Assembly (NCBI GenBank): GCA_001430755.1
Contig: CP013062.1
Location: 510,001 to 542,000, forward strand
Source: Candidatus Peribacter riflensis
GTDB lineage: Bacteria > Patescibacteriota > Gracilibacteria > Peribacterales > Peribacteraceae
Direction of reading: 5' to 3'
DNA length: 32,000 nt
Below the pieces are notes generated by a model that saw only the letters and a list, made by a program, of their open reading frames with translations, ran no database searches and was not told where the DNA came from. Below are positions 6,001-28,657 of the stretch, in pieces (position 1 is the stretch's first letter; each line of letters begins with the position of its first letter). The translations under genes were made by a program, and so were the position numbers.

Positions 6001-8053
6001 GCAGACGCAGACTTCCACCTTCACCATCACCAAGACGGATAATCAGACGACCGTCCAGCCCGGCGGAACGCTGACGTACGTGATCGCAGTGACCAATACC
6101 TCGCAAACCGCGGCAACGAACGTGACGGTGACCGATACACTCCCCTCCTCCGTGACCTTCCAGAACGCTTCCGATAGCGGAACGCACACGGCGGGAACGG
6201 TGACGTGGACGGGCCTCAGCATCGGTGCAGGGGTGACGAAGACATTGACCGTCACCGTGCAAGTCGGATCTTCTGCCACGAACGGATCCGTTCTCACCAA
6301 TACCGCAAGCGTCTCGGGTGTCTCTGCCCAGGATACGACAACCGTGCAGACCACGACCCAGGGAGCGGATCTCTCGATCATCAAGACAGGACCGAGTACG
6401 GTCCAGCAGGGCGGGATGATCAGCTACACCGTGACCGTCACCAATCACGGCCCCGCAGCCGCAACGAATGCCACCGTGACCGATGTCATCCCCACCGGAC
6501 TGACCTTCAATGCCGCGTCTTCCTCGGGCTGTACCTTGAACGGCGGAGGAACCTCGGTCCTCTGCGGCATCCCCAGTCTTGCCGCCGGACTGTCAAAATC
6601 CTTCACGCTCGCCTTCACTGTACCCTCGTCCAGCGTGTGTAACACCACAGTGCAGAACACCGCCACGATCTCGAACGCGAACGATACGAACAGTGCCAAT
6701 AATACGAGCCAGACCATCGGGACACTCGTCCAGTGCGCCGAACCGACCTTCACTGTCAGCAAGACCGACGGCCGCACCACCGTGCTCCCCGGAGAATCGC
6801 TGACCTACCAGATCACCGTGACGAACACGTCTGCCTTCGCCACCACAAATGTGCAGGTGACGGATGCGCTGCCGTCGGGAGTCACCTACGTCACCTCTTC
6901 GGACAGCGGAACGCTCTACGGCTCGACCGTGAAGTGGACGCTCGCAAACCTCGCGGCTGGCGCCAGCAAGTCGCTCATCGTCATCGTCACCGTGCCCTCC
7001 TCGGCATCGAACGGAACCGTGCTCACGAACATCGTGATCGCCGGTACCGCCACGGCAGTGGATACGACCACGGTGAACACCAGCAGTTCGAGCTCAAGCT
7101 CCAGTTCCAGCTCCTCGAGCAGCGCGTGTAATCTGACCGTCACACTCAGAGATTCTCAGGATCCCGTCGATCCCGATGAAACCTTCACGTACACCGTGGA
7201 AGTGCGCAACAACGACTCGACGACGCTGAACAACGTCACGCTCACGCAAACCCTGGATAGCAACGTGAACTTTGTCTCAGTGACCGGCAATGGCAACAAC
7301 GATTCCGGCAACACCATCCGCTGGACGGGCCTCTCGATCGGCGGCTACGCCACCTCCACCTTTGAAACGACCGTGCGTGTGAAGGGTGACCGCGACGGCG
7401 CGACCATCCGCTCCAATGCCTTCGCCTGCTCGACGCAGGACAGTGAGAACACGCAGGTGACGGGCAATGACATTCCGCCTCCGCCGCCTCCTCCGCCTCC
7501 CTCCGGCGGGTACCTGACGATCGATAAGCAGGCGGATCGCAGCGAAGCGCAGGCCGGCAGCATCATCGCCTACACCATCACCGTCCGGAACCAGAGCAAT
7601 ACGGCCATCGGACCCGTGATGATCGAAGACACCTTCTCTGCAAGCGACATGACCGTGGAGTACGCCGATGGAGGCTCCATAGGCGGCGGATCGATCAGCT
7701 GGGATCTGGGCACGCTGGGCTCCAATGCCACGCGCCTGATCCACTACCGCGTGCGTCTGAGCCAGAGCCTGCAACACGGCCAAACCGTCCAAAACTCCGT
7801 GCGCGTCGTCAATGGCAACGCCACCGCCAGCGAGCAGGTGAATATCATCCGCTACTTCCCGCAGACCGGTCTGCTCGAGCGCTTCATCAAGTCGCCGGCA
7901 GACAAGGCCGCCTTCCTCCAGCCGGTGACCGCCAAGAAACGCCCGGCCGAAGGCGATGCCAGCATCCCCATGCTCACGTGGCTCATCCTCGCCTCTATGG
8001 GGCTGACCACAGGCGGATTCCTGGGGAAGAAACTCATCTTCATGGGAATGTAA
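2..8053 (+). CDS. giant secreted/surface repeat protein (DUF11-type 'conserved repeat domain' array with D-rich metal-binding-like motifs); 5' end lies outside the window
   Basis: The frame is open from nt 2. The track 'M' at nt 50 is an internal GTG, and nt 2-76 already encode a repeat unit (DNDQDGKTDYPNDPDCVSPSDNDET). About 20 units of ~110-115 aa follow, of two alternating flavours: ADLS[VI]TK[ST]GP...NxGP..A.NV.[IV].D..P.GLTF...VLCNNF.L and PTFTITKTD..TT..PG..LTY...V.NTS...ATNVTVTD.LP. The motif C.DGIDND.DG..DYP.D..C....DNDE occurs at nt 2-76, ~596-790 and ~2455-2665. Other landmarks: S14 at 7082-7123, P9 at 7475-7501, FPQTG at 7856-7870, C-terminal TM helix, TAA stop at 8051-8053. Confidence 0.85.
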   Translation, partial: DNDQDGKTDYPNDPDCVSPSDNDETGSIGSCNGQPISLTSLPNLQSIILHEDTTNIATYTFAKNDPKLFQDLNQSPTSYDFSTNADEYYDLYISNADGSVNPNGSYLTIDDFRNNTLLNAQVGHNIDAVELKLSSGPSFYADKVVKVAIGTGLSGDYLNQNGYATRALGTPNAQSTRLGDQHARLVLGFCDALQNLPACSDGIDNDGDGATDYPGDFSCDSPTDNDETNPKAQCQDGIDNDQDGLIDYPNDLGCSSAQDQTEANTDICSADGDISMKIYLTHVSNEGAGNTQPKIYLTNESLPVNPGQTIDLVQNGVPVIDAIEQLNIPGLSVQRGNGWVRIGLYGSHPTHESIERMIGEMVLLGAQVTAFENDTRASNPVERPRNNIHRGIPTEDEVYPNVGTNNTAFFLTVDTANDVFTIRYAPVLCPAPQADLSVTKSGPSSVVAGNTVSYTVTAANAGPHTATNVVIADVIPAGLTFDAGASTPGCILNGAGTSVLCNNFSLTAGQTRTFTIAFTVPSTHPCDGTNMITNQATVSSSQGDPNAGNNTSTTVTTPVQCPAAPKADLSIVKTGPSSVLRGEAIAYTVTVTNAGPTDAQNVVITDLIPTGLTFDAGASTPGCVLNGGGTSVLCNNFTLQPAQSRTFTIAFTTASSLSCGSTIRNTADVASSQGDPNSVNNHSETVSTVTCPTADVTITKSGPVSVHRGGNILYTITVTNLGPNRSDNVVVVDRPESMAGLTFNAAQTDPDCVLNGVEVLCNNISLLPGQSRTYNIVFTVSQTFACGGTIANRANVNVSTPDPHGDNNWSERIVTSVTCAQCNDGIDNDQDGATDYPADFSCTDPNDNDETNPKAQCQDGIDNDQDGTVDFPTDVGCTSAQDNDESNPLLTPDLSITKSGPTIADRGNAVSYTVTVTNIGAATALNVVVADVVPTGLTFHGGLSSTDCLLNGAGTSVLCNNFSLAPGQTKTFTITFNIPTSVSCGSTIQNTATVSTSNDPNGVNNTSQTVQTTVQCPVSNADLGISKSANLTSVMTGDPVTYTLTVTNSGPGTASNVVIGDALPAGVAFDVLFTQTSGFSCYRQPSDANHLVCVRSSMAAGETVTIRYQARVLQQGTCSPRSLTNTSNVTALSSTDQNSGNNYATATVQLTCPALTADLSVQKSVSPASVLQGQPLTYTLFVQNFGPGTAQNVLISDALPVGLPFNVQFLQSDGFSCWRQGSDPNHLVCSRPSMAPGETATIRFTATVSGGSCMPQTLLNTASVTATSTSDPNSGNNYSQASAQLTCEYPTFSIAKTDNHTTAMPGDVLTYILTVSNTSSVNATDVTVTDALPSSVTFLSASDSGQLSGGTVTWSHLSIPAHTTKTLSVSVQVQYGTSNGTILTNTANVAGVSAQDQTTVQVQDTADLSTTKTGPQLAQRGSTIFYTVTVFNAGPGASQNATVTDVVPTGLVFLPQQSSLQCVLAGNVVTCSGISLAAGQSQSLTLAFEIPSSVPCGQILLNAAEVHGTNDPNCVNDLSQTVTTAVQCINPTYTITKTDGHTTAEPGEALTYTISVTNTSTVNATSVTVTDTLPALVTFVSASDGGTQAGGTVTWSGLTIAAGATKQLTVQVQVNLTAPDDAVLTNYAAVAGMSAQDSTTVQVPPTNADLIIMKTGSMTAMQGNIAFYAITVFNAGPSASQNVVIGDVIPAGFTFNQMYSSPECVLNGAGTSVLCNNFTLATGQSRSFTVAFNVTASTVCNAAVQNTATVSTSNDTNDSNNTSQTVSTTIQCPNPTFTITKTDNQTTVQPGGTLTYVIAVTNTSQTAATNVTVTDTLPSSVTFQNASDSGTHTAGTVTWTGLSIGAGVTKILTVQVQVSAQATNGTVLTNAATVAGTSALDTTTVQSQISSFTITKTDNQTVVQPGALLTYVVSVTNTSQVNASNVTVTDTLPVLATFVSASDSGTQTGGTVTWSGLTIAAGATKQLTVQVLVSQTAPHGTVLINTATIAGLSAIDTTTVQTQTSTFTITKTDNQTTVQPGGTLTYVIAVTNTSQTAATNVTVTDTLPSSVTFQNASDSGTHTAGTVTWTGLSIGAGVTKTLTVTVQVGSSATNGSVLTNTASVSGVSAQDTTTVQTTTQGADLSIIKTGPSTVQQGGMISYTVTVTNHGPAAATNATVTDVIPTGLTFNAASSSGCTLNGGGTSVLCGIPSLAAGLSKSFTLAFTVPSSSVCNTTVQNTATISNANDTNSANNTSQTIGTLVQCAEPTFTVSKTDGRTTVLPGESLTYQITVTNTSAFATTNVQVTDALPSGVTYVTSSDSGTLYGSTVKWTLANLAAGASKSLIVIVTVPSSASNGTVLTNIVIAGTATAVDTTTVNTSSSSSSSSSSSSSSACNLTVTLRDSQDPVDPDETFTYTVEVRNNDSTTLNNVTLTQTLDSNVNFVSVTGNGNNDSGNTIRWTGLSIGGYATSTFETTVRVKGDRDGATIRSNAFACSTQDSENTQVTGNDIPPPPPPPPPSGGYLTIDKQADRSEAQAGSIIAYTITVRNQSNTAIGPVMIEDTFSASDMTVEYADGGSIGGGSISWDLGTLGSNATRLIHYRVRLSQSLQHGQTVQNSVRVVNGNATASEQVNIIRYFPQTGLLERFIKSPADKAAFLQPVTAKKRPAEGDASIPMLTWLILASMGLTTGGFLGKKLIFMGM
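5325..5552 (+). repeat. 228-bp perfect intragenic direct repeat, copy 1
   Basis: Compared base by base with 6015-6242 (offset 690 nt = 230 codons). The copies are identical, with mismatches immediately outside both ends. Confidence 0.9.
6015..6242 (+). repeat. 228-bp perfect intragenic direct repeat, copy 2
   Basis: Identical to 5325-5552. Both encode ...TFTITKTDNQTTVQPGGTLTYVIAVTNTSQTAATNVTVTDTLPSSVTFQNASDSGTHTAGTVTWTGLSIGAGVTK. Confidence 0.9.
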
Positions 8054-9939: not shown

Positions 9940-10560
9940 ATGATCCGGAAGCCCTTCACCCTCTGGTTCCACTTCTTCGATGTTCTGCTGAACATCGTCA
10001 TCATCGTGGCGGTGGTGGCGGGCATCCGGACGTTCCTCGTTTCACCGTTTCAGGTGGAGGGCAACTCCATGATCGACACACTCGAGAACCGCCAGTACAT
10101 CATCATCAACAAGCTCGTATACTTTCTGAACAAGCCGGGGCGCGGCGACGTCGTCGTCTTCCGTCCACCGAACACCGACCACAGCAAACACTACGTGAAG
10201 CGCATCATCGGCGAGCCGGGCGACGAGATCATCATCCGCAACGGATCAGTCTTCGTGCGCGTCGGCGGCAAAGACAAAGAACGCCAGGTCGCCGAGCCCT
10301 ACCTGAATGACCGTAACCAGGATCACACCTACGTCGGCGCGGCGGGCAGTGGAGAAGAGAAGCGCTATCCCGTCCCCGCGGGCCACTACTTCCTGCTCGG
10401 CGACAACCGCTTGGGGAGCCTGGATTCCCGGTCCTTCCGCAATGCGCAGAACGAGCCCACTCCTTTCGTGCCCGAAGATGACATCAAGGGACGCGTCTGG
10501 TTCGTGGCCCTGCCCTTAAGCAAAGCCCACGCCATGGAGGCACCGGAGTACGGTTTTTAG
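9940..10560 (+). CDS. lepB: signal peptidase I
   Basis: N-terminal TM helix, then VEGNSM, GDVVVF, YVKRIIGEPGD and LLGDNRLGSLDSR motifs. ATG 9940 is preferred over the track start 9766, whose extension (EEAKEAEETKEREER) merely translates a polypurine tract. Confidence 0.9.
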   Translation: MIRKPFTLWFHFFDVLLNIVIIVAVVAGIRTFLVSPFQVEGNSMIDTLENRQYIIINKLVYFLNKPGRGDVVVFRPPNTDHSKHYVKRIIGEPGDEIIIRNGSVFVRVGGKDKERQVAEPYLNDRNQDHTYVGAAGSGEEKRYPVPAGHYFLLGDNRLGSLDSRSFRNAQNEPTPFVPEDDIKGRVWFVALPLSKAHAMEAPEYGF

Positions 10561-10660
10561 GGATAGGGTTAGGGCTAGGATTGAGGTGTTTTTTAGGGAA
10601 CTTTTTTCCCGATACCCTAGTCACTTTCTCTCCCGACCCTCACCCTAATCCTATCCCTAT
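10561..10660. repeat. TAGGG-core G-rich arm (10561-10587) and CCCTA-core C-rich arm (10636-10660), imperfect inverted pair
   Basis: GGATAGGGTTAGGGCTAGGATTGAGG ... CCCTCACCCTAATCCTATCCCTAT. The arms share ATAGGG and TAGGATT blocks when one is reverse-complemented. Confidence 0.7.
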
Positions 10661-10675
10661 TTCCTCATCATTCCC

Positions 10676-10703
10676 TTGCACCCGCCCAAAACCCCTGTAC
10701 AAT
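10676..10703 (+). promoter_or_regulatory. candidate sigma70-like promoter for secE-nusG
   Basis: TTGCAC (10676-10681), 16-nt spacer, TACAAT (10698-10703). A small CCCC-TTCC-GGGG hairpin plus T6 follows at ~10714-10730, before the secE ATG at 10745. Confidence 0.3.
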
Positions 10704-10744
10704 CGCTGTATTCCCCTTCCGGGGTTTTTTCTTCTAAGCAAGCA

Positions 10745-10936
10745 ATGTTCAAGAAGACTTCTGACTACCTCCGTGGCGCCGTCGAAGAGCTCCACCACGT
10801 CCGCTGGCCCACCCGCCAGCAGGCCGTGCGGCTGTCACTCATCGTGATCGCGTTCGTCTTCGGCACGGCAGTGCTCTTCGGCGTCGTGGATTTCCTCCTC
10901 GCACGCGTCGTCTCTCTCCTCCTCTCCTTCACCTAA
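10745..10936 (+). CDS. secE: preprotein translocase subunit SecE
   Basis: 63 aa: MFKKTSDYLRGAVEELHHVRWPTRQQAV followed by a single TM helix. It lies immediately upstream of nusG, the conserved secE-nusG arrangement. Confidence 0.8.
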   Translation: MFKKTSDYLRGAVEELHHVRWPTRQQAVRLSLIVIAFVFGTAVLFGVVDFLLARVVSLLLSFT

Positions 10937-10967
10937 CCCTAACCCTAACCCTAACCTTCACCCTATT
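10932..10967. repeat. (CCCTAA)n telomere-like tandem repeat in the secE-nusG spacer
   Basis: CCTAACCCTAACCCTAACCCTAACC, then TTCACCCTATT. The repeat includes the secE stop codon and ends 3 nt before the nusG ATG. Confidence 0.9.
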
Positions 10968-10970
10968 CGT

Positions 10971-11516
10971 ATGGGCAAGCAGGATCCGAATGCCGGACGC
11001 AACTGGTACGTCGTCCACACCTACGCAGGCTATGAAGATGCCGTGCGCCAGGCCATTCTGCAGCGCGTGGAATCCTTCGGCATGCAGGATTACGTCCTGG
11101 ATGTGCGCGTACCCAAAGAGAAGCAGCTCACCTTCAAGAAGGGCGAGCCAGTGGAGGAAGAGCGCAAGCTCTTTCCGGGCTACGTGCTGGTAGACATGAT
11201 CGTGACCGACGAGAGCTGGTACCTGGTGCGCAATACGCCGAACGTCACGGGCTTTGTGGGTTCGGGCAATATTCCGGTCCCCGTCACGCCCGAAGAATTC
11301 GGCGTGATCGAGCGCAGAGTGGGCGAACAGGAGGCCAAGTACAAATCAGATTTCCAGATCGGCGACCTCGTGGTGATCATCGACGGTCCCTTCAAGAACT
11401 ACGAGGCGACGGTGAGCGCGGTGGATGTGAACAAGGGCAAGCTGACCGTGATGGTGCTGATCTTCGACCGCGAAACTCCCGTCGAACTGGATTTCACGCA
11501 GGTGAAGAAGAAGTAA
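10971..11516 (+). CDS. nusG: transcription termination/antitermination factor NusG
   Basis: NWYVVHTYAGYE, FPGYVLV, VRNTPNVTGFVG, and a KOW-like FQIGDLVVIIDGPFKNYEATV. Confidence 0.95.
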   Translation: MGKQDPNAGRNWYVVHTYAGYEDAVRQAILQRVESFGMQDYVLDVRVPKEKQLTFKKGEPVEEERKLFPGYVLVDMIVTDESWYLVRNTPNVTGFVGSGNIPVPVTPEEFGVIERRVGEQEAKYKSDFQIGDLVVIIDGPFKNYEATVSAVDVNKGKLTVMVLIFDRETPVELDFTQVKKK

Positions 11517-11526
11517 AGCCGTCTGC

Positions 11527-11916
11527 TCAACGGGCATCGCCGAAATCCTTCGGGAGGAGGATCAGAACGCCGTTCACCGATTCTGGATCAATGGCCTGCT
11601 CATCACCGTTCGCATCGATATAACTGATCTCATGGAATTGTTCGGCATCCGTTGCCATGAGAACGAGTGCCCGATTGCCGACGTCCTTGCGTGCGATGGA
11701 ACGTGACTCCTCGAAAACCTCACGAACCTGTTCGTACCCGAAATCTTCACGGGCGACTTCTCCCGCCTCCCTGAGAGCTGTCAGTTTCTGCCAGAGAGGA
11801 TGTGCTGTGCATGTCTGAAGAATTTCTGCACGGATGGCCGCCCCGATCTCTCCTACTGCCGGATGGGGGGCATCGGCCTGAGGTTCGGAATTCACTGCTT
11901 TCGGCTCTTCAACCAT
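11527..11916 (-). CDS. hypothetical protein
   Basis: 129-aa ORF with an ATG start and coding-like composition. I recognise no family. Confidence 0.45.
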   Translation of the reverse strand: MVEEPKAVNSEPQADAPHPAVGEIGAAIRAEILQTCTAHPLWQKLTALREAGEVAREDFGYEQVREVFEESRSIARKDVGNRALVLMATDAEQFHEISYIDANGDEQAIDPESVNGVLILLPKDFGDAR

Positions 11917-11960
11917 ATTTGCTATTATACATTAAATATTATTTTCATCAACTTCACTCT

Positions 11961-12020
11961 CTGCATGCTGCATACTGCATGCTGCATACTGCATGCTGCA
12001 TACTGCATGCTGCATACTGC
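11961..12020. repeat. 14-bp tandem repeat x4.3 (CTGCATGCTGCATA; alternating CTGCATG/CTGCATA heptamers)
   Basis: Read directly from the sequence. It ends 6 nt before the acyP ATG and lies in the divergent spacer next to an AT-rich block (11917-11960). Confidence 0.95.
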
Positions 12021-12026
12021 CCCGCG

Positions 12027-12296
12027 ATGCCCGCCCGCCAACTCCTCATCACCGGTCTGGTCCAGGGCGTCTTCTTCCGCGCGGAAGCAAAGAAGAAAGC
12101 GGACGCCCTCAAGCTCACCGGCTGGGTGCGCAATAACGATGACGGATCCCTCGAGATGCACATCGAGGGTATGCCAGCGGCATTGCAGCAATTCGAACAG
12201 TGGTGCCAGCGCGGAACGCAGGCGGCACGCGTCGAAGAGGTGCAGGCGAAAGACGTGCCGGAGGATTACGGCAAGACCTTCGTCATACAGATGTGA
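12027..12296 (+). CDS. acyP: acylphosphatase
   Basis: 89 aa with ITGLVQGVFFR and GWVRNNDDGSLE, the acylphosphatase signatures. The track start 11802 reads through the tandem repeat and is unlikely. Confidence 0.85.
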   Translation: MPARQLLITGLVQGVFFRAEAKKKADALKLTGWVRNNDDGSLEMHIEGMPAALQQFEQWCQRGTQAARVEEVQAKDVPEDYGKTFVIQM

Positions 12297-12310
12297 ACAG
12301 GCACCGCGCA

Positions 12311-13627
12311 CTATAATGCCCCTCTCGCGCTCTGCACTTCTCGTGGGAAGAGCAGCAGGAGCCCCGTCATTTCGACAATGTGACCGACGCAGTACCCCAG
12401 TGCCAGACTGAAGACACCCAACTTCGGAGCGAGCGACCACGAGAGCGCGATGGCAATCACGCCATTGAATACGGTGAGAATCGCCGGGATCGTCGTATGT
12501 TTGGTGGCGAAGTATGCCCGCGTGAAGAGGTGGTTCAGGCTCTCGAAGGGAATGCTCAGAGCGTAGAGCGCGAGACAGGTGAAGAAGACCGGCACGAAGA
12601 GCGTCTTCAAATGAATGAGCCATGCCGCAACGGGCGTGAGGAGCACGAGCAGAATCGCCCCCGGAATCGTGAGCAGGAGCATCCACACGACTCCCCTCTT
12701 CAGGTACTGGCGGTACCGCCCCCACTCGCCGCGCGCCGCAGACTGACTCAGGGGCGAAAAGAGCGAGAGGGCCAGCGCCATGCCGGTGACGCCCACCACC
12801 ACCGACTGAAAGTTGCGCGCGTAGGCATTGACCGCGATGGAACCGACCGAGAGCCCCGAAGCGATGCGATCGAACACGAGCAGTTCCACCTGCAGCGCCC
12901 CGAGTGCAAGCATGCGCGGCAACATGAGCAGCCCCATCTCAGTCAGATCCGGATGCCACCACGTGAGTGCGAAACGGTATCCGGCGCGGACGATGGCGAG
13001 CAGGCGGATGAGCGTATAGAGCAGTGCACCAGCGAGCGTGCCGAGAATGGGACCGTAAGGACCGACGAACGGCGTGAGCCAGAGCGTGCCTGCGATCGTG
13101 CCGAGGGTGAAGACCACCGGGGTCAACCCGTAGATCCAGAAACGCTGGATGGTATTGAGGTACTGGCCGAATGCGTTGCCGAAGACGAAGAGAAAATTCG
13201 TGAGGAGCGCGATGCGCGCGAAGGTGGTGTAGAGCGCAAGACTCTCGCCTTCGAATTGCGTAAAGGCCGGAGCCACCCACGGAAAGACCGCCGCCAGCAG
13301 CAGAGCCAGAACGCCGAAGAGGATGGCTGCCACCGTGATGACTCCGTTAAGGAGTGCCGACATGGCACTCCGGTTTTGTGCCGCCTCGTACCGCGCGAGC
13401 AGGGGCACGAGCGCCACCGAGAACCCCGCCATGATCGTCACCTGAAAGAGGAGGTCTGAGGGACGGAAGGCCGCCACGTACACATCCACCACCGCAAGGC
13501 CGGGGAACGTGCGGTTGAGCAGGTTGTCGCGGATGAGTCCGGCGAACGACGCCGTGAATTGCGTGACCGCGAGCACGGCCGCGCCCCCGAGGATGCGATG
13601 CTGGGAACGAAGAGCGCTGAAGCGCAT
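12311..13627 (-). CDS. murJ: lipid II flippase MurJ/MviN family
   Basis: About 14 predicted TM helices. N-terminal ...FAGLIRDNLLNRTF...DVYVAAFRPSDLLFQV..AGFSVALVPLL is typical of MurJ. ATG 13627 (MRFSAL...) is preferred over 13678. Confidence 0.8.
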   Translation of the reverse strand: MRFSALRSQHRILGGAAVLAVTQFTASFAGLIRDNLLNRTFPGLAVVDVYVAAFRPSDLLFQVTIMAGFSVALVPLLARYEAAQNRSAMSALLNGVITVAAILFGVLALLLAAVFPWVAPAFTQFEGESLALYTTFARIALLTNFLFVFGNAFGQYLNTIQRFWIYGLTPVVFTLGTIAGTLWLTPFVGPYGPILGTLAGALLYTLIRLLAIVRAGYRFALTWWHPDLTEMGLLMLPRMLALGALQVELLVFDRIASGLSVGSIAVNAYARNFQSVVVGVTGMALALSLFSPLSQSAARGEWGRYRQYLKRGVVWMLLLTIPGAILLVLLTPVAAWLIHLKTLFVPVFFTCLALYALSIPFESLNHLFTRAYFATKHTTIPAILTVFNGVIAIALSWSLAPKLGVFSLALGYCVGHIVEMTGLLLLFPREVQSARGAL

Positions 13628-13695
13628 ACACGGAGTGTAGCGAGAGCACACGCAAAATGCAGCGGGACTTGCACGCATTCCTCAGGACTGCACGG

Positions 13696-14487
13696 CTACC
13701 GTGAGACGTCGTCTAAGACGGCCTGCATGTACTCGAGCGTATTGATGCCCTCCACGATGCGCATGGACTGGGTCTCGTTGTTGAGGAAGACAAAGGAAGG
13801 CGACACGTAAATTTCGGTGTCGGTCTCGGCCATCGCCTTGTCTTCGAGCACGTAGTCGTACAGCTCTTCACCCTCGATACAGGTCTGCAGACCCACGGCA
13901 TCGGCACCCACCTGTGTTCCGAACGAGAGCAGCAGATCAAGCGGCAGAAGGCTCCCGCGCTCGTTCATGAGCAGATCCAGGTACGCCCAGAAACCGTCGT
14001 TCCCCAGCTGCTGGGCAACGCACTCTGTCGCAATGCCGGACCGGTAGTCGTTCTGATTATCCGTGCCCGGGTAGTGGCGGAAGACCCAGTGCATGCGGTC
14101 ACTGTTCTGCTCGAAGAACTCGCCCATCTTCATGTGGATCAACTGCGTGTAGAGGCTGGTGAGCGCTCCGTACTCCACGAGCGTCACCTTGGTCTGCGGG
14201 TTGCCGCGGATGTGCTCATCGGGTTCGATGTCTGTAAGAAAGAGGTACGGGCTGGGCTCCTGCGGCAGGGGCTTGTCGCCGGTGTACTGCGCGATGTCTT
14301 CGTACTTTTTTAAGTCAGGCTGCGCCACCGGAGCGATGAGAGGCACGGCAGGCTGCTCCGGAGCGGCCCCGCGAAACGGCTCGGGACGGCCGATCATCCA
14401 CTCGGCAAAGAAGTACCCGCCGATGAGGATCAGCAGGCACAGAGCCACGAAGAGCCATACCTTTGTCCGGTCCTGCGATTGCATCAT
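13696..14487 (-). CDS. membrane-anchored DsbA-like thioredoxin-fold protein lacking the CXXC active site
   Basis: N-terminal TM helix. KVTLVEYGALTSLYTQL stands where the family has ..EF.DFQCP[FY]C. Downstream family features are kept (ATECVAQQLGNDGFWAYLDLL, LQTCIEGEE, VSPSFVFLNN in place of the GTP cis-Pro loop). Confidence 0.7.
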   Translation of the reverse strand: MMQSQDRTKVWLFVALCLLILIGGYFFAEWMIGRPEPFRGAAPEQPAVPLIAPVAQPDLKKYEDIAQYTGDKPLPQEPSPYLFLTDIEPDEHIRGNPQTKVTLVEYGALTSLYTQLIHMKMGEFFEQNSDRMHWVFRHYPGTDNQNDYRSGIATECVAQQLGNDGFWAYLDLLMNERGSLLPLDLLLSFGTQVGADAVGLQTCIEGEELYDYVLEDKAMAETDTEIYVSPSFVFLNNETQSMRIVEGINTLEYMQAVLDDVSR

Positions 14488-14676: not shown

Positions 14677-17600
14677 ATGCGACATCTGTTGGGAAGAATC
14701 ACAGTGGGAATCGCGCTCGGCATCGTGCTGATTCTCGTCCTTCAGCAGAATGTCTCGCGCAAACCGGAGGGAGGCTGGAATTTCTTCGCAGCCTTGGTTG
14801 ATGTCACGGACTGCCCGGTGGGCACGCACGTCTTCCACTGCAAGTGCAATCCCAAGACCATCGCAGCAGCTGAAGACATATCCGAGGAAGAGGCAGGGGG
14901 AAAGGATGTGTACTGCTGCGCCGTCACAGAAAAAGGCTATCTCGATGAGATGAAGAATCCCAATGGGGCAGTGGCGGAGGAGGGGTACAACAAAATGGTG
15001 GCCTTCCTCAAGCTTTGGGGGGAGCATTCCGGCTCCGACGAAGAAAAAGAAAAATTCTTCAATGGGGAGTTCGCGATGACGTACGAGAAGAGTGATGGAA
15101 CCCAGGCACAGGAAAACCCCTCCTGCCCCACAGTCAGCTGCAACGACTGTAATGAATACATCAACATCATCACCGGTCAGGGGGGAAGCAGTTATCCCTC
15201 CTCATCCGGAACCTCCTCCGACGGCGGAGGAAGCTCTGCCAGCGGCGGAGGCAGTTCAGCCAGTGGAGGAGGTTCGAGTCGTGGGGGTGGCGGCAGTTCC
15301 CGGGCAGGTGGGCGTTCAAGCGCGGGCGGAAGCTCCAGTGAAGGAGGCAGCAGTTCAAGCGAAGAAGGATCCAGTTCCTCTGAAGAGTCCAGTTCCTCTG
15401 AAGGAGGATCAAGCTCGAAAGGGGGAGGAGGCTCCCGTTCCTCTGGCGGAGGATCGAGTGCCAGCGATGAGAGCTCATCTGAAGAAAGCTCCAGCTCAGA
15501 AGAGAGCTCGAGCAGCGAGGAGAGTTCCAGCTCGGAAGAGAGTTCGAGCAGCGAAGAAAGCTCCAGCTCAGAAGAGAGCTCGAGCGAAGATTCTTCGTCT
15601 TCTTCCAGTAACGCCTACTACGTCATCTGCGACAAAGTTGATCCTAAAGGATACTGCTGTCTCGTCACTGATGCGTCCCAAGGAAAGAAATGCGACAAGC
15701 TGGGCAGCCCCGATACCTGCCAGAGCCCCGGAACCGATCCTGCAAAAAAAGATAACGTGCGTGGCAACTGGTACCTCGCGCAGGCACAGCAAGGAGTGCC
15801 GAGCAATCTGCAGGGCGCCCAGAACCGCTGCATGAGCGAAGGAGGCGGATCGGATGCGGGCGGCCCCAAGGAGTGCAAGGGCGGATGCGGGAACGGCGAG
15901 GTGGAAGAGGGCGAGGCGTGCGATGAGGGGAGGGCGGACAATACCGACCCCATGGCCGGCTCCGTCGCCGAGGCCCCTGGCTGCACCGGGGAAAAATGTG
16001 GCAATGGCACCGTGAACATCATGCGCTCTCTTTCGTACGCACGTGAACCCGTGCGCGGAAAAATGCTGTGGAGCGATGCGTGGGGTGAACAACTCAAGAA
16101 GAGCAACTGTACGGATGAATGCAAAATTGCAGACTGTTCCGAGGCAGGCAAGGCAGGCAACGCCGAGGATCAGATGAAGGCCATCAACGGCTGCCTCGGC
16201 CTCCACACCGATGACGCCGCTGAGTTGGTCTGCACTCCCATCAAGAAACAGTTCATCGACGATAAGGAGTTTGTCATTCCGAAAGGGAATGTGGGCGTGG
16301 GAGATTCCCCGTCACTCGACAATGTCGAGACGGATTTCGCCTCCTGCACTCTCCTCCCCGGAAGGAGCACCGACTACTCCCAATTCATCATGGGTGGCGG
16401 ACAAGAATTGGGCTCCCCACTTATGGTGGAGGAAGACGAGGGAGGGATCGCCTATTCGCCAGCTTCTCCCTTCCTCGCCCAGGCAGCTCCCCCTCCCGGT
16501 GCCGATGCTGGTCCCTGTGCTGCGAACAAAGGTCAATGTGCCGGAAACGCAGCACCAGACCAGAAAAAAACTGGGGTGGTGGGGGATCTGTGCGGGTGCT
16601 ACTGCTGGACTGAAAAAGCAGGACGCGTTGATGACGCAAACAAACCCTGCAGTTCCGGCGGTGACTGCAAGAGCGGCACGTGTTACATCGTTGATACCAA
16701 CGATCCGAATAAAAAAATCCAATGTAAGGGGAACTCAGATCCTGCATGCACCGACGCTCAAGCGCATGCCATTGGCAAATGCGCCAGAACGGTCTACTAC
16801 TGGAATCATCCGCAGTGCGGCCCACGCGCCGATAAGCTAGGCATGCTCTGGTGCGTCAATCACGGCTGTGTGGAGCACCCCATCCGCGAGCGCAAGAGTG
16901 TCAATCGCAAAGATGAAACTCCCTTCCCGCCCATGGGTCAAGGCGGCATGCCCGGCAAACCGGGCGGTGCACCCGGAGGTGGAGGTCCGGGAACCGGAGG
17001 GGGAACCGGAGGCGGAGGAGATACAGGTGGCGGTGGCGGTGGGGGCGGAGGAGGAGGAAGTGGAGGCTCTGGCGGCAGCGGCGGGAGCTCACGCGCCAGT
17101 GTGATCTCTTCCGCCAGATCGAGCGTGGTGAGCAGCACAACCTCCAAGAGCAGTTCCAAGAGCAGTTCCAAGAGCAGCAGCAAGAGTGGCTCGAGTGGGG
17201 GTGGGCCTCCCGGCGGGGGCAGCAAATCCAGTGCGAGCAAGTCGGCTTCAAGCAAATCTTCGAGTAAATCTTCCAGCAAGTCCTCTTCCTCCTCTGCTTC
17301 AAGCAAGTCTACAGGCCCGTCTTCTGCCTCCTCTTCCTCCAGCAAATCTTCCTCATCCTCCTCTGCTTCAAGTAAATCTACAGGCCCGTCTTCTTCCAGT
17401 AAGTCTTCGAGCAGCAGTAAGAGTAGCAGTGGAAGCAGCCAGAGTTCCTGCAGCTCGCCCTGCTCCCGCAGTTCGTCTTCGTCACGATCTGCCAAGTGCG
17501 GGAACGGGCGTATCGATCTGGGCGAAGACTGTGACAATGGAGGAATGTGCAAGGCTGGTCCACGGCAGTTCGCAGAGTGCAATGCAGATGCTGACTGCTT

Positions 17601-19932
17601 CGAGGCACAAGGGCAGTGCATGGCGGGCTGGTGCAGCGACGGACTCCCCTGCTTCGGCGACTGGGATTGTGTCGATCTGTACCAGTGCATCTACAACTCC
17701 CTGAAGGATCCCTCCTGCACCGCGCAGTGCAAATGGACCAGCTCCCGCTCGTCGTCGAGCAGCCGGACCTCGGGCCTCAGCAGCGGATCAAGCCAGAGCA
17801 GTCAGTCTAGTAGTGGAAGTAGTGGAAGTAGTGGAAGTAGTGGAAGTAGTGGGAGCAGCAGAAGCAGCACCTCGAGCATCGTTATTCAGAGTTCCCCATC
17901 ATCACGCTCGTCCAGTTCATCCACCCTCTCCAGTCGTTCTTCTTCCAGTTCCTCCAGCAGGTCCCGACTGTGCGGCAACGCCCTCATCGAGATCGGCGAA
18001 GACTGCGATAACGGAAGCATCTGTGCAGCAGGAGACTTCGCCGGACGGCGGTGCGCACGGAACAGTGATTGCTCCTCCTATCGGGGTCCGTGTTCCGCAG
18101 GCACGTGCTCCGGCAAGCCCTCTGTCTTCTGCGGAAGCGACTTCGACTGCATAGAGGAATTTGCCTGCACCTATGATACGGCCTCAGATCTCACCTGCTC
18201 CACTCAGTGCAAATGGACAAGCTCCCGCTCCTCGTCGAGCAGCCGGACCTCGGGCCTCAGCAGCGGATCAAGCCAGAGCAGTCAGTCTAGTAGTGGGAGT
18301 AGTGGGAGCAGCAGTAGCAGGAGCTCCGGTTCGTCACGCACGTCCACTCCGCCCTTCTGCGGCAATGGTGTTCTCAACAGCGGCGAAGATTGTGATGACG
18401 GCAACCTGACGAACGGAGATGGCTGCGACAGCTTCTGCCAGCGCGAGAATATCATCGTCCAGCAGTGTGGCAACGGACGCGTGGAAGTTCCGGAGGAATG
18501 CGATGACGGCAACCGCATTGCCGGCGATGGCTGCGCTCCCACCTGCATGCGTGAGAATCCTCTGGCAAGCTGCGGCAACGGCAGTATCGAGGCTCCGGAA
18601 CAGTGCGACGATCGTAATACCACGGACGGCGACGGCTGTGATCGTTTCTGTCGCATCGAGTATCCCTGGGGTTCCAGCTCCAGCTACACTCCCGGCCAAT
18701 TCGTCTGCGGCAACAATATCCTCGAACCGGGAGAGGAATGCGATGACGGCAACCGCATGATCGGAGACGGATGCAATTCCCTGTGTCGCAGGGAACAGAC
18801 GTCCGGACAGCCCGTTTGCGGCAATAGTCTCAAGGAAGCATTTGAACAGTGCGATGACGGCAACCGGCAGGCGGGTGATGGATGTGATGCCTCGTGCCGT
18901 CTGGAGTCGACCATCATCACAGGTACACCCAATTGCGGCAATAACCTCCTGGAGTCGGGTGAAGAGTGCGACGATGGCAACCGGCGGGATTTTGACGGCT
19001 GCTCCGCCACCTGTTTCCATGAGCAAGGATCCTGCGGCGACGGCATCATCCAGCAGGCTCTCGGCGAACAGTGCGAACCGTCGATTCCGCGCGATCCCGA
19101 TAACCCTCTCCCCTACGGCTGCGGCCCGAACTGCCGGTTCACCTTAAACTTCTGTGGGAACGGGCTCCTCGATGCGGGTGAACAGTGCGATGCAGGTTCA
19201 CGCCTCAACAGTAATCAGCCCGATTCCCTCTGCCGACTCGATTGTTCCCTGCCACGTTGCGGAGATCGCATCGCGGACAGTGGGGAACAGTGTGACGACG
19301 GCAATGCCAAGAGCGGCGATGGCTGCGACCGCTTCTGCTTGCGCGAGGGCGGCGCCCCTGGTTCCTCCGCAGGATTTGCTGGCCAGTGCGGCAACGGGCG
19401 TATGGAAAATGGGGAACAGTGTGACGACGGCAACCTCAAGGTGGGTGACGGATGCAACGCATCGTGCCGTGTCGAAGCTGGCTGGCGCTGTGATGCCTCT
19501 GGGTGCTGCTTCACAGCAACCATCTGTGGCGATGGTATCCGTGGATGTAATGAGCAGTGTGACGACGGCAATCTCAAGGTGGGTGACGGATGCAATGCCT
19601 CGTGCAACCTCGAGTCCGGCTGGCGGGACGATGGCACAGGCAGACTCTGCTTCACGGGAGCAACGACCTGTGGCGATGGTATCCGTGGATGCAATGAGCA
19701 GTGTGACGACGGCAATCGCCTGAACGGCGATGGCTGCTCTGCAGACTGCCGTATAGATTCCGGCTTTGCCACTTCTGCACAACCAACGGGTCCGTTCCTC
19801 GCCACGCTCCGCGCCTATTCTCTCACCACCTCCCAGGCCATCCCGGGCCAGACTGGCCCTGCTGCCGTTGCCGTCATGGCCGCCGGTGCTGCCGCAGGAT
19901 TCTCCTGGATGCGACGCAGGAGGAAGCGATGA
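14677..19932 (+). CDS. giant secreted cysteine-rich-repeat protein (Myxococcus-type CGNG..CDDGN..GDGC repeats, DUF4215-like) with Ser-rich linkers and a C-terminal sorting signal
   Basis: N-terminal TM/signal anchor (ITVGIALGIVLILVL). S/G/E low-complexity region at ~15181-15610, G-run and S/K-rich region at ~16930-17495. Two ~80-aa Cys modules are followed by 12 tandem CG[ND]....E.CDDGN...GDGC...C units (18358-19750). The C-terminus is [30 protein letters not shown]. Confidence 0.85.
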   Translation: MRHLLGRITVGIALGIVLILVLQQNVSRKPEGGWNFFAALVDVTDCPVGTHVFHCKCNPKTIAAAEDISEEEAGGKDVYCCAVTEKGYLDEMKNPNGAVAEEGYNKMVAFLKLWGEHSGSDEEKEKFFNGEFAMTYEKSDGTQAQENPSCPTVSCNDCNEYINIITGQGGSSYPSSSGTSSDGGGSSASGGGSSASGGGSSRGGGGSSRAGGRSSAGGSSSEGGSSSSEEGSSSSEESSSSEGGSSSKGGGGSRSSGGGSSASDESSSEESSSSEESSSSEESSSSEESSSSEESSSSEESSSEDSSSSSSNAYYVICDKVDPKGYCCLVTDASQGKKCDKLGSPDTCQSPGTDPAKKDNVRGNWYLAQAQQGVPSNLQGAQNRCMSEGGGSDAGGPKECKGGCGNGEVEEGEACDEGRADNTDPMAGSVAEAPGCTGEKCGNGTVNIMRSLSYAREPVRGKMLWSDAWGEQLKKSNCTDECKIADCSEAGKAGNAEDQMKAINGCLGLHTDDAAELVCTPIKKQFIDDKEFVIPKGNVGVGDSPSLDNVETDFASCTLLPGRSTDYSQFIMGGGQELGSPLMVEEDEGGIAYSPASPFLAQAAPPPGADAGPCAANKGQCAGNAAPDQKKTGVVGDLCGCYCWTEKAGRVDDANKPCSSGGDCKSGTCYIVDTNDPNKKIQCKGNSDPACTDAQAHAIGKCARTVYYWNHPQCGPRADKLGMLWCVNHGCVEHPIRERKSVNRKDETPFPPMGQGGMPGKPGGAPGGGGPGTGGGTGGGGDTGGGGGGGGGGGSGGSGGSGGSSRASVISSARSSVVSSTTSKSSSKSSSKSSSKSGSSGGGPPGGGSKSSASKSASSKSSSKSSSKSSSSSASSKSTGPSSASSSSSKSSSSSSASSKSTGPSSSSKSSSSSKSSSGSSQSSCSSPCSRSSSSSRSAKCGNGRIDLGEDCDNGGMCKAGPRQFAECNADADCFEAQGQCMAGWCSDGLPCFGDWDCVDLYQCIYNSLKDPSCTAQCKWTSSRSSSSSRTSGLSSGSSQSSQSSSGSSGSSGSSGSSGSSRSSTSSIVIQSSPSSRSSSSSTLSSRSSSSSSSRSRLCGNALIEIGEDCDNGSICAAGDFAGRRCARNSDCSSYRGPCSAGTCSGKPSVFCGSDFDCIEEFACTYDTASDLTCSTQCKWTSSRSSSSSRTSGLSSGSSQSSQSSSGSSGSSSSRSSGSSRTSTPPFCGNGVLNSGEDCDDGNLTNGDGCDSFCQRENIIVQQCGNGRVEVPEECDDGNRIAGDGCAPTCMRENPLASCGNGSIEAPEQCDDRNTTDGDGCDRFCRIEYPWGSSSSYTPGQFVCGNNILEPGEECDDGNRMIGDGCNSLCRREQTSGQPVCGNSLKEAFEQCDDGNRQAGDGCDASCRLESTIITGTPNCGNNLLESGEECDDGNRRDFDGCSATCFHEQGSCGDGIIQQALGEQCEPSIPRDPDNPLPYGCGPNCRFTLNFCGNGLLDAGEQCDAGSRLNSNQPDSLCRLDCSLPRCGDRIADSGEQCDDGNAKSGDGCDRFCLREGGAPGSSAGFAGQCGNGRMENGEQCDDGNLKVGDGCNASCRVEAGWRCDASGCCFTATICGDGIRGCNEQCDDGNLKVGDGCNASCNLESGWRDDGTGRLCFTGATTCGDGIRGCNEQCDDGNRLNGDGCSADCRIDSGFATSAQPTGPFLATLRAYSLTTSQAIPGQTGPAAVAVMAAGAAAGFSWMRRRRKR

Positions 19933-22013
19933 AAGAGTCGGCCCTCTCTGACCTCTCGTATCCGATGACGCTGCCCTCTCTCCTCCGGCGCTTCCTGCTC
20001 CCCGCCACCCTTCTGGTGGCTCTCGTAACTGTCCTGACCTGGGAACCAGCTTCCTCCCCTCCAAACTTCAGGGCGCAGGTGACATCATCGACAACCTCCT
20101 CTGCGCTCTCTGGTACAGGATCGACAACATCTTCTTCGTCCCTCTCTGGTACAGGATCGACAACATCTTCTTCGTCTTCGTCTCTCTCGGACCCCGGCCT
20201 CTCCTCTTTGTCTTCCGCCCTGAGCTCCTCACAGCCAGCCGCATCTTCTTCAGTGGCCTCATCTGCATCCCCGACAAGTTCCGTTGGCATCCAATCTTCC
20301 GCCCCTGTCTCCTCCGCAGGAGCTCAGGCGAGCGATACGCCGGTGATCGGCTTGGAGGCGGGCCTGTGCGCCCAGGTGAAGCCGGACCCCGACACGGGGC
20401 AGAAACTGGTGTACTGCTGCATGGACGAAGGATACGTCTACCAACGTGAGGCCTCTCAGGAGGAGTACCAGGCATTCCTAGAGAGACTCGGAGAACTCGA
20501 AAACATGAATGCACGCGATGCCAAAGCAGCCTTCGAGGCCCCCTACAGCGGCAGCATCCACCAGAAGTACGGCTGGACGACGCTCTGTGGACGCCAGATT
20601 CCCTGTGATGTCTGCTCGCAGGATCACATCTGCGGCAACGGCATCGTGGAAGCGGCAGAGAAATGCGACGACGGCCCCCGCAACTCGGACGAAACCCCGG
20701 ATACCTGCCGACTGGATTGCACGCTGCCCTCCTGCGGCGACCGCGTCATCGACCGCCAGAAGGGCGAGGAGTGTGACGATGGAAATTTTAACGGAGACCT
20801 GCCCAACCGGTGCCGATCGACTTGTACGCTGCCTCTCTGCGGCGACAGGATCATCGATTCCTTCTACGGCGAAACCTGCGACTCGGGCAATGAGAATTCC
20901 GATTCAGCGCCGAACCGGTGCCGGTCGGCGTGTAAGTCGCCCAGTTGCGGCGACGGCGTCAAAGACAACAATGAGGAGTGTGATGACGGCAACCGCGGAG
21001 ATGGAGACGGATGTTCATTCCTCTGTTACATCGAACAGAGGCGGGAACCTCTGGATCTCACTCCACTCCGTTGCGGCAACGGCGTGCTGGAGCCGGGCGA
21101 GGAGTGTGACACGGGGGCGGAGAACGCCAATGTCCCCAATCGCTGCCGGCAGAACTGCTACCTGCCTCGGTGCGGTGACCGTATTCAGGATGAGGGGGAG
21201 GAGTGTGACGACGGCAATAGTGCGCGGGGCGATGGCTGCTCCCCCGAGTGCTCGCGCGAACTCACGCTCTCGCTCACGAATGTCTGCGGAAACCAGATCA
21301 TCGACCCCGGAGAGGAGTGCGATGCCGGACGCGCTAATACGAACATTCCCGACCACTGCCGATTCGACTGCCGTTTCCCCACGTGCGGGGATTACATCAA
21401 AGACACCAGCGAACAGTGTGATGACGGCAACCACTCCAACGGCGACGGCTGCACCGACTCCTGCTTCAGTGAATTCTGCGGCAACGGCACGCAAGAAATG
21501 GGCGAGGCGTGCGACGACGGCAATCTGGTGGGCGGCGACGGCTGCAGCCGCACATGCCAGAAGGAAATCGGTCAGGCTGTCGAGGCTCTCACCATGTCCA
21601 CTCAGAGTGCTGGTACACTGCGTCCGGCAGCATCCAGCCGTGGTCCACTCCCCGTCTCCTCCCGATCTGCGAGCGCCCCGCTCCAGCAGCAAACAACCTC
21701 TGCGCCCCCCTCTTCTTCCCTGCCTGCGGATGTCGCCGTGAACGTGGGGCAGCCCGAGCCGCTCTTCGTTGTTTCTTCCAGCTCCGCCGCTTCGCAGTGG
21801 TCCTCCACCCCGTTCGGCGCGCAGGTAATCACCTTCCCCACAGCTTCAGTCACCTCTCCGTCTCCCGTTTCTCCCTCCTCCTACTATTACACGCCGCAGC
21901 CCTCCTTCGCGGGCTCCGATGCCCTGAACGACACCGGCCCGGCAGCGCTCAGTATTGTCGCCATGGGGGCAGCGGCAGGCTTCGCCTGGGCGAGACGCAA
22001 GCGAAGGGATTAG
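19929..22013 (+). CDS. secreted cysteine-rich-repeat protein, paralogous architecture to the upstream gene
   Basis: Its ATG overlaps the upstream TGA (ATGA at 19929-19932). Hydrophobic N-terminus, Ser/Thr-rich region with a 36-bp tandem duplication (~20106-20176), VYCC module, 9 CG[ND]...CDDGN units. The C-terminus is [29 protein letters not shown]. Confidence 0.85.
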
Positions 22014-24285: not shown

Positions 24286-24362
24286 CGGGGTGTAGCTCAG
24301 TTGGCTAGAGCGCCTGCTTTGGGAGCAGGAGGCCGTGCGTTCAAGTCGCACCACCCCGACCA
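24286..24362 (+). tRNA. tRNA-Pro (anticodon TGG), CCA encoded
   Basis: Manual cloverleaf: acceptor CGGGGTG/CACCCCG, D arm GCTC-AGTTGGCTA-GAGC, anticodon arm CCTGC-TTTGGGA-GCAGG, T arm GTGCG-TTCAAGT-CGCAC, discriminator A, then CCA. Confidence 0.9.
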
Positions 24363-28581: not shown

Positions 28582-28657
28582 TGGTACCCCCGGTAGGAAT
28601 TGAACCTACGGCCAACAGGTTAGAAACCTGCTGCTCTATCCACTGAGCTACGGGGGC
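28582..28657 (-). tRNA. tRNA-Arg (anticodon TCT), CCA encoded
   Basis: The reverse complement folds as GCCCCCG-TA-GCTC-AGTGGATA-GAGC-A-GCAGG-TTTCTAA-CCTGT-TGGCC-GTAGG-TTCAATT-CCTAC-CGGGGGT-A-CCA. Confidence 0.9.

Follow-up and report, generated by a model that had tools for sequence, protein, structure and literature searches.

Candidatus Peribacter riflensis is an ultra-small groundwater bacterium. Two adjacent genes in a 32,000-nucleotide stretch of its genome (contig CP013062.1, positions 510001-542000; hereafter the window) encode large cysteine-rich proteins, here called protein 2 and protein 3, whose C-termini share a short tail made of a polar TGP motif, an Ala/Gly-rich helix and an Arg/Lys cluster. 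This raises the question of what the tail is and whether a dedicated enzyme reads it. The genome is a single contig of 1,248,026 bp (58.5% GC, 98% complete). The best explanation is that the tail is a lineage-specific, unnamed C-terminal sorting or anchoring domain of DUF4215/TIGR02232 surface proteins in Candidatus Peribacteraceae. As to how it would act, about half of our confidence goes to a diverged sortase signal, predicted to be cut within its [T/S]G dipeptide by either of two sortases, X1 or X3, with the helix aiding membrane recognition or positioning.

Each window tail opens with x-x-x-TGP, continues into an Ala/Gly helix of 17 residues (AxGAAAGFxW) and then reads RR[RK] (Table 1), and the translated C-termini match the original prediction in text and coordinates. 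When the C-terminal 150 residues of the two proteins were compared by BLASTP, the alignment was limited to the 25-residue tail (16/25 identical, 64%; E 1e-9), so the similarity is local and no by-product of overall homology. The bodies of both are built from Ser-rich linkers and numerous copies of a cysteine-rich acidic repeat (TIGR02232/DUF4215). In profile searches TIGR02232 scored 379.5 bits across 14 stretches of protein 2, which has at least 14 such repeats, and 157.7 bits in protein 3; PF13948 scored 148.5 and 108.2 bits, respectively. The ATG of the protein 3 gene overlaps the TGA of the protein 2 gene (ATGA), which suggests that the two may be co-translated as an operon.

The tail is found well beyond these two proteins. 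A six-frame scan of the 1.25-Mb genome identified nine tail-bearing proteins of 694-2108 aa, two in the window, one at a separate locus and six in tandem (Table 1). A profile built from these nine tails matched 22 of 24 other genomes of the family and 1 of 16 genomes of other families in the class; the E values in related genomes (3e-22 to 1e-10, six-frame whole-genome searches) place the similarity far above chance. A broader 23-tail profile, applied to 301 genomes sampled from the class, matched 38 of 40 Candidatus Peribacteraceae genomes with 1-14 copies each, and outside the family gave 4 weak matches in 260 genomes. The N-terminal bodies of the carriers vary (FG-GAP, YVTN propellers, or repeats only), and the original prediction that the conservation goes beyond overall homology holds: the tail sits on many proteins with differing N-terminal bodies across the whole family. 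Nor is it a peculiarity of two paralogs in a genome devoid of a suitable enzyme, given nine copies here, family-wide occurrence and sortases in the genome. The tail has the generic layout of a tripartite sorting domain, with a short motif, a helix and a C-terminal basic cluster, in multiple copies and conserved within a lineage. It is real and lineage-wide, and it has no name in the copies of Pfam and NCBIfam that were searched. An ortholog of protein 3 is named by NCBI only [quoted passage not shown], so current annotation gives the tail no sorting-domain name, and a literature search found no paper linking Peribacteria, or Peregrinibacteria and the Candidate Phyla Radiation (CPR), to a sorting signal.

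The geometry of the tail is nearly constant among 79 distinct tails gathered from the retrieved loci. GP is invariant in 79/79; the residue before it is mostly T (61) or S (12), otherwise E (3), V (2) or N (1), so that T/S accounts for 73/79 (92%). Positions -4 (A/V/L/R/T) and -3 (G/T/A) vary, and neither Leu nor Pro is conserved there. The first basic residue lies 18 aa from P in 74/79 tails (94%), GxxxG starts at offset 10 after P in 78/79, and an aromatic residue, mostly W (55/78), comes after GxxxG. The C-terminal end comprises 4-13 residues, mostly basic. Cys occurs anywhere in 2/79 tails, with none conserved. An alignment of the nine tails of this genome shows no variation at T, G, P, G-A-A-x-G, W and R-R. 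The predicted tripartite layout is thus borne out, with a geometry fixed over 79 tails. The helix of protein 2 has a mean Kyte-Doolittle value of ~1.6 (hand sum), i.e., it is short and marginally hydrophobic.

All 13 tail-bearing proteins examined contain the DUF4215/TIGR02232 repeat; conversely, by a regular-expression count ~21 open reading frames (ORFs) of this genome fit the repeat pattern, and ~12 of them have no tail. One DUF4215 protein, of 644 aa and immediately downstream of the X1 gene, has no C-terminal helix. Three giant cysteine-rich proteins carry another tail type, G-[VI]-P-[VIL]-P-[DN]-A-P-x-T followed by 12-13 terminal hydrophobic residues and lacking a basic cluster, which seems to represent another signal class without a name. 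Just behind the second gene in the tandem cluster, a 28-codon frame aligns with the helix-and-Arg portion of the tail profile and is probably a tail remnant from recombination between paralogs.

Does the tail belong to a family that already has a name? Full-length tail proteins reached the cut-off of no C-terminal sorting model in NCBIfam or Pfam, in agreement with the view that the motif is not LPXTG, PEP, GlyGly, MYXO or PGF; the best CTERM scores were 10.5-11.5 bits for IPTL (cut-off 20.5) and 8.9 for PEP-CTERM (cut-off 16). Isolated tail fragments matched the IPTL, MYXO/GC_trans_RRR, PEP, NPXTG, LPXTG and GVDTG models weakly, in the helix and Arg part only. TIGR03382 was the one model whose cut-off, a low one, was passed, and only by some tails as bare fragments of 45-50 aa (the protein 2 tail scored 17.1-18.3 bits against a cut-off of 15.85), in matches that span profile positions 7-26 of 27 and miss the Cys-containing signature; on full-length tail proteins this model was unreported. 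The tails scored 16.5-16.7 with TIGR03901 (cut-off 20) and gave zero matches to TIGR03501 (GlyGly-CTERM). All nine match PEP-CTERM (TIGR02595/PF07589) weakly, with a best E of 0.0006, and these matches begin at profile position 4-6, past PEP, and run to position 24 of 24. GVDTG-CTERM (NF058571) was rejected as a near match (15.6-16.9 bits against 29, profile positions 24-44 only), and a search of the literature on this name found nothing relevant.

Membership in one of these families (MYXO-CTERM/GC_trans_RRR, PEP-CTERM or IPTL-CTERM) draws on the fragment-level pass of TIGR03382, the weak PEP-CTERM matches and the presence in the protein bodies of the cysteine-rich repeat of Myxococcus. MYXO-CTERM (TIGR03901/TIGR03382) does resemble the tail in its TIGR02232-repeat carriers, tripartite shape, Arg-rich end and conserved helix. 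However, its defining residue is an invariant Cys, without which the CPBP protease myxosortase MrtX does not cleave it (PMC11980579), whereas TGP tails have no invariant Cys and a CPBP protease was not detected in the genome; moreover, the organism here belongs to the CPR, is monoderm-like and has sortases, unlike a diderm in which a type II secretion system mediates surface delivery. PGF-CTERM and PEP-CTERM likewise combine a three-residue motif at the helix start, a near-constant helix length and basic residues, and are lineage-wide and multi-copy, but the motif of the tail is [T/S]GP rather than PGF or PEP, and no exosortase or archaeosortase homolog was found. With the GC/Cys or PEP signature positions unmatched, no full-length score above 8.9-11.5 bits against cut-offs of 16-20.5, no conserved Cys, and neither exosortase nor CPBP genes found, we consider membership in an existing family extremely improbable; it is effectively refuted because both the signature residues and the enzymes are missing.

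Sortases are the only known sorting-enzyme family detected in this 98% complete genome. Searches for exosortase/archaeosortase (PF09721, TIGR04178) and rhombosortase (TIGR03902) gave zero matches in the genome, rhomboid PF01694 scored at most 16.6 bits against 22.6, and the best CPBP match (PF02517) was 11.6 bits against 22.4, in an ORF that encodes a PrsW-family protein. The ORFs behind these weak rhomboid and CPBP matches were rejected as candidates: they encode a TPR membrane protein (the best rhomboid match), a polysaccharide-synthesis protein and the PrsW protease. Three genes carry a PF04203 sortase domain (71-86 bits against a cut-off of 26.6). None lies in the window, the nearest being ~25.6 kb beyond its end, and the window holds no other candidate, as the original prediction had anticipated. 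Two of the three also exceed the cut-off of TIGR01076, and none reaches that of a class A-F model (best 58 bits against 140-166). The genome paper of Candidatus Peribacter riflensis describes exported proteins that are large and rich in cysteine, mentions no sortase beyond "a sortase A", and reports no C-terminal signal (PMC4736985).

The three sortases differ in their distribution. X1, a membrane-anchored protein, has orthologs in 41/41 genomes tested. X3, in which an N-terminal hydrophobic segment is followed by SLH domains and the sortase domain, has orthologs in 24/24 genomes of the family, and also in family f10 and probably in f3. Clear orthologs of X2 are confined to genera g1, g15 and g17. 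X1 and X3 occur together in every tail-bearing genome examined. X2 adjoins lgt, the gene for prolipoprotein diacylglyceryl transferase, in most X2 genomes, between rnhB and tsaD (here lgt lies immediately downstream); lgt was not picked out beside X2 in the ORF lists of three genomes (G006, G003 and G024). Such a sortase-lgt pairing is unusual. Tail genes adjoin the lgt-X2 pair in three genomes, in two arrangements (G005/G008 and G022). X2 was rejected as a dedicated enzyme: it is absent from most tail-bearing genera and sits in the conserved rnhB-lgt-srt-tsaD context. X3 was rejected in the same role, being family-wide but with members of the same YTCWPPD clade in family f10, which has no tails; the sortase-domain tree was built without X1 sequences and served solely to tell the X2 clade from the X3 clade. 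X3 has a distinctive YTCWPPD active-site motif and carries SLH domains in place of a membrane anchor. Its N-terminal hydrophobic segment can be read as a cleavable signal peptide, which would make the enzyme wall-bound rather than membrane-bound.

The tails of relatives point to a sortase. Small proteins of the sister family f16 end in ...LAETGPAETL...RRK and are weakly matched by the tail profile; this ending is a class-E-like LAxTG motif with Pro after it. Class E sortases use LAXTG. In the two Peribacteraceae genomes without a profile match, DUF4215 proteins end in ...TPETGPGGIIIVIALSGMAASAFRKR and ...KTPTGPELFLVILVTGGLAGASIFRRR, with the motif forms ...TPETGPGG..RKR and ...KTPTGPE..GGLAG..RRR. 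Furthermore, seven other proteins of Candidatus Peribacter riflensis end in QPSTGP, LPSSGP, LSQTG, LAPTG, LPSSG, MPETG or PGETG, followed by a helix, which often ends in G..GW, and basic residues. From LAETGP, TPETGP, PTGPE and the TG tails of the same genome, the TGP tail can be placed at one end of a continuum of PxTG/LAxTG-type signals. We favor a diverged sortase signal because LAETGP is found in the sister family and TPETGP and PTGPE in diverged Peribacteraceae on the same type of protein. Consistent with this are the position of [T/S]G directly before the helix in a tripartite layout with invariant GP, the detection of sortases alone among known sorting-enzyme families, the co-occurrence of X1 and X3 with the tail together with the tail genes beside lgt-X2, and a short, marginally hydrophobic 17-aa helix, which we take as typical of cleaved retention signals.

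On this reading of a diverged sortase signal, the protein would be exported by Sec, and the 17-residue Ala/Gly helix and the Arg/Lys cluster would retain it in the membrane with [T/S]-G-P on the outer face of the membrane. Cleavage between T/S and G and transfer to the cell wall (lipid II) would then fall to a sortase whose gene lies elsewhere in the genome, most likely X1, the class-wide housekeeping enzyme, or X3, the family-wide one with SLH domains. The tail may descend from the LAxTG/PxTG-type signals of relatives through loss of the Leu/Pro positions and gain of a rigid helix (GxxxG, aromatic residue, fixed length), which probably contributes to recognition inside the membrane. Cleavage, its site, the enzyme and the attachment to the wall are all inferred.

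Several observations weigh against a sortase. The likeness to LPXTG/LAXTG signals (TIGR01167, PF00746) comprises a motif ending in T-G, a hydrophobic segment, a basic tail and the presence of sortase genes. However, the window tails read PGQTG and LNDTG and lack the LPXTG pentapeptide, and the Leu and Pro (or Ala) positions that define LPXTG/LAXTG are not conserved; the TGP tail differs further in its invariant Pro after Gly, its helix of fixed length and its conserved helix sequence (AxGAAxG-x-x-W). TIGR01167 scored 14.3-14.5 and 12.7 bits on the tails against a cut-off of 15.9, and PF00746 matched 1/9 tails (E 0.1). E, V or N precedes GP in 6/79 tails (8%), which is unusual for sortase substrates. 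A strict helix length (74/79) and a fixed GxxxG (78/79) are not classical sortase features, and a rigid helix fits better with recognition by a membrane-embedded partner. No sortase shares the distribution of the tail, X1 being present in 41/41 genomes, X2 in three genera and X3 also in f10. With the repeat present in 13/13 tail-bearing proteins, the tail may also be an anchor specific to this protein family. A membrane-embedded reader, or a tail that escapes processing altogether, would account for the missing Leu/Pro, the 8% of tails lacking T/S and the rigidity of the helix.

The absence of processing would make the tail a permanent, uncleaved single-pass anchor, in which the GP cap, GxxxG, the aromatic residue and the Arg cluster serve helix-helix association, with other copies of the tail or a partner membrane protein as partners. 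Integrin transmembrane segments, with GxxxG and a membrane-proximal basic motif, hold FG-GAP/Cys-rich ectodomains and offer an analogy. The constraints just described point this way, as GxxxG offset and helix length are fixed while E, V or N is allowed before GP, as does the occurrence of the tail, among the carriers examined, on DUF4215-repeat proteins only, several with FG-GAP or YVTN propellers. No recurrent enzyme gene lies beside the tails, and no sortase has a matching distribution. On the other hand, a weakly hydrophobic 17-residue Ala/Gly helix would be a poor anchor for ectodomains of 700-2100 aa, T/S-G is kept in 92% of tails even though it lies outside the helix, the tail has kinship with LAETGP/TPETGP sortase-type tails, and its cytoplasmic part of 4-13 mostly basic residues is as found in cleaved signals. 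We therefore regard a permanent anchor as possible but unlikely.

Could a membrane enzyme other than a sortase read the tail? The candidate at hand is the PrsW-family intramembrane protease (PF13367 at 49.4 bits), whose superfamily also includes the CPBP myxosortase; processing by an enzyme of this type, or by an undescribed membrane enzyme, would constitute a new sorting system akin to those of exosortase, archaeosortase and myxosortase. In Myxococcus the cysteine-rich repeat type of the tail proteins is paired with MYXO-CTERM (TIGR02232/TIGR03901 families), which favors such a system. So does the combination of a rigid helix and conserved intramembrane residues, which resembles PEP-, PGF- and MYXO-CTERM signals read by polytopic membrane enzymes (PMC11980579). 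The Peribacteraceae copies of PrsW have an extra N-terminal region of ~120-230 aa that is unmatched outside the family, and the gene lies ~4 kb from tail genes in two genomes (G009 and G013). However, PrsW homologs are present in 40/41 genomes of the class, tail-less families included, the gene is not adjacent to tail genes in Candidatus Peribacter riflensis, and we know of no precedent for PrsW in protein sorting. When the ORFs around tail genes were clustered in 18 genomes, no protease, transpeptidase or unknown conserved membrane protein recurred, and the T/S-G dipeptide and the kinship with LAETGP point to a sortase instead. A new CPR sorting system, with a membrane-embedded enzyme that recognizes the fixed-length GxxxG helix and either releases the giant cysteine-rich adhesins or anchors them anew, seems to us improbable, as does non-sortase processing in general. 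In many genomes of the family the PrsW gene lies ~10 kb from that of sortase X3.

The idea of a dedicated enzyme is not supported by distribution or by gene neighborhood. X1 is class-wide, X3 is also present in at least one tail-less family and X2 is missing from most tail genera, and among the genes that flank the tail genes no processing enzyme is recurrent. The only recurrent neighbors in the 18 genomes are a protein O-mannosyltransferase (PMT) and a GT2 glycosyltransferase, in 3-4 genomes each and in several genera, which suggests O-glycosylation of the Ser/Thr-rich linkers. In genome G009 the GT2 glycosyltransferase/PMT genes lie at 10455-11210 (+) and 11219-12727 (-) of locus L071, with similar genes in G075, G155, G290 and G251.

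Within the window, a gene for a thioredoxin/DsbA-like protein (PF13462 at 26.5 bits, above cut-off) lies directly upstream of the two cysteine-rich protein genes, together with murJ. The DsbA-like protein may help the repeats to form disulfides and is context rather than part of the tail system. The window also contains most of the gene for a ~3,900-aa protein with DUF11/CARDB-type repeats, which extends upstream to genome position 506375; this protein has another hydrophobic tail (...IPMLTWLILASMGLTTGGFLGKKLIFMGM) with no TG motif. Two tRNA genes complete the list of features in Table 1.

Table 1. Positions of the tails, their genes, candidate enzymes and other features in the window and in the genome
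Feature	Sequence	Position	Strand	Description
Protein 2 gene	Window	14677-19932	+	1751-aa ORF; N-terminal signal/anchor, Ser-rich low-complexity linkers, TGP tail
Protein 2 tail	Window	19840-19929	+	IPGQ-TGP; TGP at 19852-19860
Protein 2 tail helix	Window	19861-19911	+	17-aa Ala/Gly helix AAVAVMAAGAAAGFSWM; GxxxG is GAAAG
Protein 2 tail basic end	Window	19912-19929	+	RRRRKR, then stop at 19930-19932
Protein 3 gene	Window	19929-22013	+	694-aa ORF; 9 cysteine-rich repeats, TGP tail
Protein 3 tail	Window	21924-22010	+	LND-TGP; TGP at 21933-21941
Protein 3 tail helix	Window	21942-21992	+	17 residues
Protein 3 tail basic end	Window	21993-22010	+	RRKRRD
Tail protein, separate locus	Genome	1199235-1205144		One of nine
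Tail proteins, tandem cluster	Genome	1221733-1248017		Six of nine
Sortase X1	Genome	388487-389740		418 aa
Sortase X2	Genome	567601-568392		264 aa
Sortase X3	Genome	281105-282307		401 aa
PrsW-family intramembrane protease	Genome	291462-293129	+	
Frame matching helix and Arg half of tail	Genome	1232926-1232976	+	28 codons
Second tail type, giant cysteine-rich protein	Genome	573586-580356	+	
Second tail type, giant cysteine-rich protein	Genome	1205192-1211512	-	
Second tail type, giant cysteine-rich protein	Genome	1211542-1215675	-	
DUF4215 protein without C-terminal helix	Genome	386335-388269	-	644 aa
Thioredoxin/DsbA-like protein	Window	13696-14487	-	
murJ	Window	12311-13678	-	
DUF11/CARDB-type repeat protein	Window	2-8053	+	~3,900 aa
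tRNA-Pro(TGG)	Window	24286-24362	+	
tRNA-Arg(TCT)	Window	28582-28657	-	

Tripartite C-terminal signals are well known, and the tail therefore introduces no new principle. A model of it would nevertheless fill a gap in current annotation, and it provides a testable case of a sortase-type signal that lacks the Leu-Pro positions and has a conserved helix in addition, which bears on how signals and enzymes diversify. The presumed lifestyle of Peribacteria and other CPR bacteria is one of attachment to other cells, for which giant cysteine-rich proteins are the main candidates (PMC4736985). The tail offers a marker, in a single hidden Markov model, for the surface proteome of Peribacteraceae.

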